Assembly: GCA_963818965.1 (NCBI GenBank)
Contig: CAWFUG010000001.1
Span: forward strand, 128,001 to 192,000
Source: an uncultured Verrucomicrobiae bacterium
GTDB taxonomy: Bacteria > Chlamydiota > Chlamydiia > Chlamydiales > Rhabdochlamydiaceae
Direction of reading: 5' to 3'
DNA: 64,000 nt
Shown here: positions 46,037-48,157 of the stretch, piece by piece
Numbering within the stretch: the stretch's first letter is position 1
Layout: every line of letters begins with the position of its first letter
Notes under the pieces: model-generated
What the model was told of the DNA's origin: nothing
Databases searched by the model: none
The model's input: the letters and a program-made list of their open reading frames with translations, nothing else
Program-made: the position numbers and the translations under genes

Positions 46037-48157
46037 TTAGATTTTTGTGTTCTTAAGCCTCAGAGCATTCAGGATGACGGAGAGCGAGCTCAGCGTCATC
46101 GCGGCGCTTGCGATGATAGGACTGAGCAGTAAGCCGAAGAAAGGGTAGAAGAGACCAGCCGCAATGGGGATGCCGAGTGTGTTATAAAGAAAAGCAAAGC
46201 AGAGGTTTTGCTTGATATTGCGCATGGTCGCAAGGCTCAAATTGAGAGCCCTTCCGATCCCTCGCAGGTCTCCTTTGACAAGAGCGATCCCTGCGCTCTC
46301 GATCGCGACATCTGTGCCAGAGCCCATCGCAATCCCGACATGCGCTTGAGCGAGCGCGGGGGCATCATTGATCCCATCGCCTGCCATGGCGACGATTCGT
46401 CCTTCCTGCTGAAGTCTCTTGACGATACGGAGTTTATCTTCAGGCAGCACCTCTGCTTCGACCCTATCGATGCCGAGCATTTGGGCAACTGCTTCGGCTG
46501 TTGTCTGGTTGTCTCCCGTGACCATCACGATCTGGATCCCTTTTGCATGGAGTTGAGCAATCGCCTCTTGCGTCGTCGATTTGATGACATCGGAAAGGGT
46601 AAAGACCCCCTCAGGCTTGTCGTCGATGCTAAGGTAGAGAAGCGTTTGACCGGGCAATGGCTCTTGTGGAAAAGTGGTGGATAAATTGGCGAGGAGTTTA
46701 AGATTACCCAGAGCAATCCTCTTCCCAGAGATCCTCCCCACGATCCCTTTGCCGCTGAGATTCTCAAATCCCTCGACTGGGCTTAAATGGAATCCTTTTT
46801 CCTTGGCTTTATCTACGATGGGGACTCCCAACGGGTGTTCGCTTCTCAACTCTAAGCTCGCAGCGAGTTGGAGCAGTTCTTCTTCACTTTTATCCCCTAA
46901 GCTCACACACCGAATCAACTTTGGTTTCCCTTCTGTGAGGGTCCCCGTTTTATCGACGACGAGGGTATTTACCTGAGCCATTTTTTCCAGAGCTTCGGCA
47001 TTTTTAATGAGGATGCCCGACCGCGCCCCTTGGCCGACTCCTACCATGATCGAAAGGGGGGTAGCAAGACCTAACGCACAGGGACAGGCGATGATGAGGA
47101 CAGCGACTGCATTGATGAGAGCATGGGCAAAAACGGGAGGAGGTCCGAAGATTGCCCAAAGGCAAAAAGTGAGGAGAGCGCTCGCGAGGACCGCTGGGAC
47201 GAAGTAGGAGGAGACCCGATCGGCGAGCTTTTGGATGGGAGCTGCACTTCGCTGCGCTTCATTGACCATTTGGACGATCTGAGCGAGCAACGTCTCACTC
47301 CCGATTTTCTCAGCGCGCAGGATGAAACTGCCATTTCCATTTAAGGTCGAGCCCGTCACCTTGTCCCCTTTTTGCTTGGTCACCGGGAAAGGCTCTCCTG
47401 TGAGCATCGATTCATCGACGGAACTCGTCCCCTCTAGGATCACGCCATCAGTGGGGACTTTTCCCCCTGGTCTTACCCGCAATCGGTCCCCCTTTTTCAC
47501 TTCCTCCAAGGCGATGTCTTTTTCCGATCCATCCTCGAGGACGATACGCGCTGTCGTCGGGCTTAAATTGAGAAGTGCCTCAATGGCGTGGCTCGTCTTT
47601 TCTCGCGCGCGCAATTCCAAAACCTGACCCAAAAGCACGAGGACGGTAATTCCGCTCGCCGCCTCGAAGTAAATGGGGAGTCCAGGTAAAAATGCAGCGA
47701 CCAGACTGTAGAGATAAGCCGTCCCCACGCCGATGCTAATCAGGGTGAACATGTTTAATACCAATCCTCGAAAATAACCTGTATTTGAGCGCGTGAAAGC
47801 GCTGGGATTTGACGCAGCTGAAATGCAGGTTATTTTCGAGGATTGGTATAAGTTTCTATAGATGAGAGAGCGCCACCCGCGCACAAAAAACGGCCAGCCT
47901 CCCCAAAGGACAACAGGCGTTGCAAGAGCTGCTTGAATCCAGATAAAAGAGAAAGGTCCCATTGCAAACAAGAGGATCGGCACTGTCAATACCAGTGAAA
48001 CCCAAAAGCGCACCGTCATGCTTCTCAACTCGACATTTTTTTCTTTTTTAGCCGTGACTGTTTGAGGCTCTAAAGCCATCCCACAAAGAGGACAATTACC
48101 CGGCCCTTCTTGTACGACTTGAGGGTGCATGGGACAAGTGTAGCGTGTCGTTTCCAT
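46037..48157 (-). CDS. copA: Copper-translocating P1B-type ATPase carrying a 31-aa in-frame insertion
   Basis: [37 protein letters not shown] and MxxSS motifs. Confidence 0.95.
47759..47848. mobile_element. 90-bp palindromic element inserted in frame in copA
   Basis: 23-bp perfect TIR TACCAATCCTCGAAAATAACCTG, TAA on both flanks. Confidence 0.9.

Follow-up and report, generated by a model that had tools for sequence, protein, structure and literature searches.

The copA gene of this genome carries a 93-nt block which, judged by comparison with its homologues, is a true insertion: a short palindromic element with its target duplication, read in frame as 31 extra codons just ahead of the methionine equivalent to one of a candidate copper entry site. 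The gene is located in the stretch of 64,000 nucleotides that was analysed (hereafter, the window), which belongs to an assembly of 2.24 Mb in 12 contigs, 88% complete. Three things are new: the A family to which the element belongs, the derivation of its short form through a deletion, and the copA site together with the empty-site allele. The element represents a protein-coding MITE, similar to the palindromic elements of Rickettsia (RPEs), of a new family in a new phylum.

Table 1. Coordinates of copA, the inserted element with its parts, and related copies in the window.
Feature	Position	Strand	Remarks
copA, P1B-1 Cu(I)-exporting ATPase	46037..48157	-	706 codons + stop; stop-to-stop ORF to 48304
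Target-site copy 1	47849..47851	-	TTA on coding strand (Leu103), TAA on + strand
Short A-family palindromic element, body 90 nt	47759..47848	-	encodes residues 104-133
Target-site copy 2	47756..47758	-	TTA on coding strand (Leu134); N135-M136 (LNMFTL motif) directly after
Left terminal inverted repeat	47759..47781	+	23 nt, perfect
Right terminal inverted repeat	47826..47848	-	23 nt, perfect
Inner hybrid hairpin module	47782..47825		remainder of the long form after a 64-65-nt internal deletion between two CGTC(A/G)AA repeats
Half copy (one arm + terminus) of the long A form	35961..36036 (C1:163961-164036)		elsewhere in the window
B-family copy	50414..50548 (C1:178414-178548)		outside long open frame; downstream of MFS transporter gene

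The Palindromic Block in copA

The block at 47756-47851 consists of TAA, a body of 90 nt, and a second TAA, so that the body and the duplication together add 93 nt (31 codons) to copA. The 23-nt terminus is found at both ends of the body, on opposite strands and with no mismatch, while the matches expected from 100 shuffles amount to 0.00; the inverted repeat reaches 33 nt at 94% (47758-47790 with 47817-47849). The coding-strand RNA of the block folds into a single long hairpin of -48.7 kcal/mol (shuffle mean -15.4, z = -11.7), a stability equalled by none of 200 shuffles. In all of these respects the preliminary description, which reported a 90-bp hairpin with perfect 23-bp terminal inverted repeats and a TAA duplication, 93 bp added without a stop codon, and a duplicated triplet corresponding to the Leu codon, is upheld: the coordinates and the repeat scan agree, the minus-strand ORF 46037..48304 stays open throughout the block, and the triplet reads TTA on the coding strand as both leucines given in Table 1. 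Residue numbers of CopA are counted from the ATG at 48157, the probable start according to orthologues, which begin with M..YTCPMHP.

A comparison of the element with Rfam gave only weak hairpin-type matches (best 27.9 bits, against a gathering threshold of 171), and a scan for promoters and terminators returned one promoter-like site, with 0.9 expected, and no terminator-like site.

Empty Sites in Related Genomes

Of 41 related genomes searched at the protein level, 40 contained P1B ATPases, and the ORF with CPC and DKTGT motifs was taken from 18 loci (39-73% identity). All 18 homologues lack the insert and read ...RN-LNMFTL or a close variant, as had been anticipated in proposing that relatives would have an empty site and that removal of the element restores the canonical sequence. 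The linker ahead of LNMF, between MB’ and M1, is nearly constant in length across these 18 proteins. The codon for this Leu is CTA, TTG, or CTC in the orthologues, and the target triplet is TTA in this lineage.

At the DNA level, public runs contain the region at small shares (≤0.09), and four of them were compared at 85% likeness; X4, the one RNA run among these, does not cover the element. One contig of run X3 (record 16; 250 nt, at a low depth of 2.2), which is ~95% identical with 13 differing letters, joins position 47759 to 47853 and thereby omits exactly 93 nt; its shorter side spans 103 nt. This contig is a precise empty site from a related organism, not from the same strain.

When residues 90-145 were compared with 5.8 billion proteins (word-indexed, E ≤ 0.001), only one of 370 candidates matched, the window’s own protein, and the allele with the insert is known from one assembly only. 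Orthologues sharing the same 31 residues in the absence of palindromic DNA, which had been named as the finding that would speak against an insertion, are thus absent from both the 18 homologues and this search. The 32-residue peptide, in turn, had two matches among 1.84 billion representatives; these are repeat proteins rich in Thr/Ala/Gly, which matched over 10 and 14 stretches, and the matches were judged compositional.

The A Family and the Origin of Its Short Form

The preliminary description proposed a genome-wide search with the element, and this search gives 47 matches to the 96-nt block in its own 2.24-Mb assembly, the closest copies being 98%, 96%, 96%, and 90% identical. The A family comprises a long form, a nested palindrome of ~155 nt (154-155 nt) with three copies, and a short form of 90 nt with five copies (copA, C1:278545, C8:379760, C9:36711, and C9:189279), in addition to half copies, which bears out the idea of a multi-copy mobile element. 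All five short copies show, relative to the three long ones, an identical internal deletion of 64-65 central nt, bordered by the two CGTC(A/G)AA repeats. This identity indicates that the deletion occurred once and that the short form spread afterwards. The complete A copies (4/4) are flanked by direct TAA/TAA or TTA/TTA repeats, that is, by a TWA target duplication. The flanks of the element do not make up a 5-bp direct repeat.

The insertion in copA is the only one of the A family in a coding sequence of this genome, and the other four short copies lie outside long open frames. Two A copies, at C9:189279-189374 and C2:36975-37134, are found exactly at a TAA between two long ORFs of the same strand. 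In the former, the upstream ORF terminates at the flanking TAA of the element, and in the latter, the ATG of the downstream gene follows immediately after the element. The element apparently uses stop codons as TWA targets.

The B Family and the Wider Superfamily

A second and larger family, B, shares the inner module with the A family and differs in its outer repeats (TACCCCGCGCGC...). When blastn was run with three queries (a short A, a long A, and a long B copy) and the results were merged by place, both families together occupied 100 places in the 2.24-Mb genome. Most complete B copies (15/17) are flanked by TTA...TAA, which is not a direct 3-nt repeat; these flanks would fit a TA duplication within TTAA (163 + 2 = 165).

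The B copy in the window yields two mirrored small ORFs, 50293..50535 (-) and 50381..50683 (+), whose peptides are near-identical (...RDSTIEKGACI..IQAPFSIVESR...) and which could be mis-annotated as genes. There is also a 43-nt “mini” B form, composed of the termini only, that is in frame in three long ORFs (C8:205413, C9:192788, which is locus L046, and C9:400411) and adds ~15 residues (..ARSNAPSSSARGI..); one of these ORFs encodes an ABC-2 permease whose Pfam domain spans the insert. At C11:411771-411941, a 163-nt B copy with a central in-frame stop parts two frames of 114 and 242 codons in the same phase. This may represent a gene that was disrupted by the element, or by a point change that arose in it afterwards.

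Reading Frames and Insertions inside Genes

The forms differ in the number of stop-free frames that they offer. The short A form adds 93 nt (31 codons) and has two of six frames open in the copA copy and three of six in the C9:189279 copy; the long A form adds 157 or 158 nt and has none (0/6); and the 163-nt B form, which adds 165 nt if the duplication is TA, has four of six. The internal deletion thus brought the added length to 31 codons and opened two of the six frames, one of which is the frame in use in copA. The prior for the copA element being open in frame is ~1 in 3.

Counted across the superfamily, 32 of the 100 places fall in a frame that has no stop and remains open for ≥30 codons on each side; in 23 of these 32, the ORF measures ≥220 aa. 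Of the 23 ORFs, 21 were submitted to Pfam, and 13 of the 21 had a family match. Domains are found on both sides of the insert or across it in copA, aroA, a TRAM/U5-methyltransferase gene, an msrA-msrB fusion, and an ABC-2 permease gene. The aroA product aligns with E. coli EPSP synthase in two pieces (query 30-229 with chain 15-216, and query 289-487 with chain 221-421). Several other in-frame cases are only 40-55 codons from the upstream end of the ORF and may lie outside the real gene.

These counts answer two further proposals in part. The likeness to RPEs holds insofar as sister elements are in frame in aroA, msrAB, and the methyltransferase and permease genes, but all of these sisters are B copies and not A copies. 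The opposite outcome, in which every other coding insertion would disrupt the frame, is contradicted by the several B copies that preserve it; at least one sister element, the B copy at C11 described above, has an in-frame stop that splits an ORF.

The crude ORF density of the genome is ~0.82, whereas no more than 32 of the 100 places lie in open frames, which indicates a depletion of the elements in genes. This pattern may reflect a selection filter acting on a promiscuous element.

Search for a Mobilizing Enzyme

No pair of A termini 300-3000 nt apart was found in the 88%-complete assembly. Two pairs of B termini, 2.3 and 2.8 kb apart, were considered as a possible autonomous element and discarded, as they enclose ordinary genes (a glgB-like gene, a GH95-like gene, and those for a Pom outer-membrane protein and an FAD oxidase). 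Four genes for PF01609 transposases were likewise rejected as partners: they belong to insertion sequences (ISs) with unrelated ends, namely a 1.2-kb IS in three copies and a single IS5-type IS (DDE_Tnp_1_5 + DDE_Tnp_1). PF13359 and PF01797 had no match in the 88%-complete assembly, and a cognate IS with matching ends was not found in it either. A REP/REPIN nature, which would imply mobilization by a RAYT, was also dismissed, since no such Y1 transposase (PF01797) was matched in this assembly of 88% completeness. A TWA duplication is also a feature of IS5/PIF-Harbinger-type enzymes and of Tourist-like MITEs.

Distribution in the Order and Identity of the Host

In a sample of 300 genomes of the order, 25 (this genome counted) contain relatives of the long A form, as do six of 24 genomes of the same family, with full-length matches of 73-83% identity in several genera. 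The relatives share the TWA and TACC ends, and direct TWA flanks are observed at loci L083, L087, and L088. Of 11 loci of the long A form in other genera, none is in an ORF that stays open for 30 codons or more on each side. In the relatives’ copies L082-L091, the central and inner stems vary between genera and nevertheless stay complementary, a covariation-like conservation of the hairpin, while the CGATCG motifs, the TACC ends, and the TWA flanks are fixed.

A scan of public genomes for the exact A terminus gave 20 loci, of which only L099, L105, and L106 are relevant; the remaining ones are mostly single matches in unrelated phyla and were taken as chance. The genome of L099, which has the exact terminus, is labelled Parachlamydiales. 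For L105 and L106 compared with G240, a relative of the same family is labelled Verrucomicrobiae in the public record, while the genome collection places it in the family of the window genome. The host genome encodes three full TLC nucleotide transporters and one protein of the Protochlamydia Pom family. Together with the terminus in L099, these genes point to an environmental chlamydia as the host, and the chlamydial origin suggested beforehand is plausible.

The CopA Protein and the Position of the Insert

CopA contains the Pfam domains HMBD, E1-E2_ATPase, and HAD Hydrolase, and its nearest solved relative is Legionella pneumophila CopA (LpCopA; 3rfu), with a full-length match at E = 1.1e-238. 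Both proteins (3rfu/4bbj for LpCopA) share an alignment of the 61% identity class over the whole pump, the N-terminal HMBD, the MA/MB/MB’ region, the entry triad, CPC, and DKTGT. LpCopA differs in lacking the 31 residues that CopA has here between chain positions 141 and 146. The alignment is accordingly split into two pieces (query 6-98 with chain 40-141, and query 134-704 with chain 146-734), and the break places the extra residues after the MB’ helix region, immediately ahead of L146-N147-M148.

In this alignment, M136 corresponds to M148 of LpCopA, which in the accessible part of PMC11213822 is named, with E205 and D337, as a candidate initial Cu(I) coordination site. This correspondence agrees with the earlier statement that the Met of NMFTL after MB’ is part of the copper entry site. 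In an alignment of 19 sequences, the equivalents of the triad (M136, E181, and D313) are invariant columns, as are CPC358-360, DKTGT402-406, and H441 of the HP motif, while YN658-659, M687/S690/S691 (MxxSS), and G593/D594/G595/N597/D598 (GDGxND) are at least 90% conserved. The complete P1B-1 CopA signature is hence found (CPC in M4, DKTGT, TGE/A-domain, HP, GDGxND, YN, MxxSS, and the Met/Glu/Asp entry triad). The description of the host protein as otherwise intact stands to this extent, all catalytic and metal ligands being kept, and applies at the level of sequence.

An AlphaFold2 model built on the 19-sequence alignment has a mean pLDDT of 77 and a pTM of 0.66. Residues 102-134, between the helices 88-99 and 136-156, have pLDDT values below 50 (ten-residue block means of 35, 26, and 25). 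The model fits an extruded cytosolic loop, with the qualification that low pLDDT is also expected for a segment lacking aligned homologues.

CopA is the sole CPC-type P1B ATPase found in the 88%-complete assembly. The second and only other P1B ATPase of the assembly (C11:355330-357558) shows 33% identity and holds SPC instead of CPC; a simple pattern did not find an N-terminal metal-binding motif in it, and it is probably not a Cu(I) exporter.

Effect on CopA and Alternative Explanations

The conserved length of the MB’-M1 linker implies that an insertion of 31 residues there may well be harmful, and the youth of the insertion (98% identity to a sister copy, perfect terminal repeats) means that the intact ORF says little about function. 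A real insertion could thus have crippled CopA, leaving a young pseudogene-in-waiting that is in frame by chance. Such an outcome would be consistent with a linker whose length is conserved in 18/18 homologues, with a site two residues from the entry-site Met, with an event that is recent and is seen in one assembly only, with an open-frame chance of ~2 in 6, and with the stem of -48.7 kcal/mol in the coding RNA. A second lesion is nevertheless absent, the ligands are intact, and the match to 3rfu is full length; the only other P1B ATPase found is the SPC paralogue; sister elements are tolerated in housekeeping enzymes such as aroA; and the insert is predicted as a loop outside the folded core. 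Loss of function by this route is regarded as rather unlikely, though not negligible, and on the whole we lean slightly towards a CopA whose function is retained or partly retained.

At the other extreme, the loop could have been co-opted as a new cytosolic segment at the chaperone docking platform, with one Cys and a net positive charge, modulating the delivery of copper. Its position between MB’ and M1, beside M136/E181/D313, and the Cys of the peptide would suit this role, but with a single known allele conservation cannot speak, the peptide results from reading through a selfish element, of which the remaining four short copies are outside long open frames, and the predicted confidence over the insert is low; co-option is considered improbable. 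It is still harder to envisage that the insert is never translated. Ribosomes are reported to hop over coding gaps in T4 gene 60 and in the yeast mitochondrial “byps”, and here identical TTA codons flank a very stable hairpin; hopping from the first TTA to the second would produce canonical CopA. There is, however, no stop codon after the take-off codon, the copies in conserved genes are open in frame, and no gene was found to contain the long A form, with its stops and its shift of the frame, a combination expected if the elements are translated and not if they are skipped; very little weight is given to hopping. The same small weight is given to an assembly artefact, in which a repeat copy would have been misplaced into copA. 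The fragmentation of the genome into 12 contigs at 88% completeness and the small share of the region in the public runs would allow it, but a typical read exceeds the 93-nt block in length, the target duplication is precise, the frame is kept, and the sequence is unique, 2% off its nearest copy.

The explanation preferred over these is a recent insertion of a non-autonomous, MITE-like nested palindrome into a TTA Leu codon just before the Asn and the entry-site Met. This element is the short (90-nt) deletion derivative of the ~155-nt A-family element, and it was presumably moved by a transposase acting in trans. Selection would remove the insertions that break needed genes, so that the intragenic copies that persist would be those compatible in length and frame. 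In copA, translation of the element would generate an extra cytosolic loop of 31 residues, probably disordered, between the MB’ platform helix and M1. Taken as a whole, we consider this explanation likely.

Comparison with RPEs and Other MITEs

RPEs were reportedly described by Ogata et al. in 2000 and 2002. As far as the available portions of two sources go, they constitute an extreme case of in-frame insertion of MITE-like elements (PMC10969869, PMC3733652), with a size of ~150 bp according to the MITE review among them (PMC10969869). In both systems, the elements are short palindromic repeats that reside in an obligate intracellular bacterium, occur in frame in unrelated and apparently functional genes, to which they add a family-specific peptide, and form several related families per genome. 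RPEs, in contrast, have an alphaproteobacterial host, while the host here is PVC/chlamydia-like, and the likeness drawn here is one of behaviour. The element described here, moreover, possesses distinct terminal inverted repeats, is flanked by a duplicated TWA target, and is modular in build, combining an inner module that is shared with outer repeats that are exchangeable; in copA, the inserted copy is a deletion derivative of 90 nt, compared with the ~150 bp stated for RPEs in that review. By analogy, the copA element works like an RPE, and it is not classed in RPE-1 to RPE-10, as its host is not Rickettsia.

Among MITEs, of which the Correia and the Tourist-like/IS5-related elements are further examples, the same features recur: a size below 300 bp, the lack of a transposase gene, terminal inverted repeats, a short, AT-rich duplication of the target, a high copy number, derivatives arising by deletion, and relatives with empty sites. 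The copA element exhibits the defining ones (size, no transposase gene, terminal inverted repeats, target duplication, dispersed copies, and occupied and empty sites). It differs in that this assembly yielded no full-length IS sharing its ends and in that the palindrome is nested throughout instead of being confined to the ends, while a large share of the copies of the superfamily is tolerated inside genes. ERIC, QMITE1, and the Anabaena MITEs are listed among prokaryotic MITEs, some of them intragenic and in frame, in the sections of PMC10969869 available. Among open-access papers and preprints, no paper on such elements in Chlamydiae was found.

Significance

A broader proposal is that environmental chlamydiae possess their own order-wide superfamily of coding-compatible palindromic transposons, independent of RPEs, in which a deletion would have turned a 155-nt element incompatible with genes into a 93-nt cassette of 31 codons, expressed and tolerated in copA, where it would give a working pump a new loop at the platform on which the copper chaperone docks. 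This proposal is tentative, and its chances are judged somewhat short of even.

The A family offers an example, within one family, of a deletion derivative that gains coding compatibility. The copA insertion is a convenient test object, since two residues separate it from a metal entry site whose structure is defined, a simple heterologous pump assay exists, and a natural insert-free allele, ~95% identical, is at hand. For annotation, inserts of this type account for odd extra loops in chlamydial proteins. Protein-coding palindromes have so far been treated as a near-unique oddity of Rickettsia, and their presence in a second, unrelated obligate intracellular lineage would point to a general outcome, in which small populations, weak selection, and a mobile hairpin suited to translation lead to proteins being remodelled instead of genes being destroyed.
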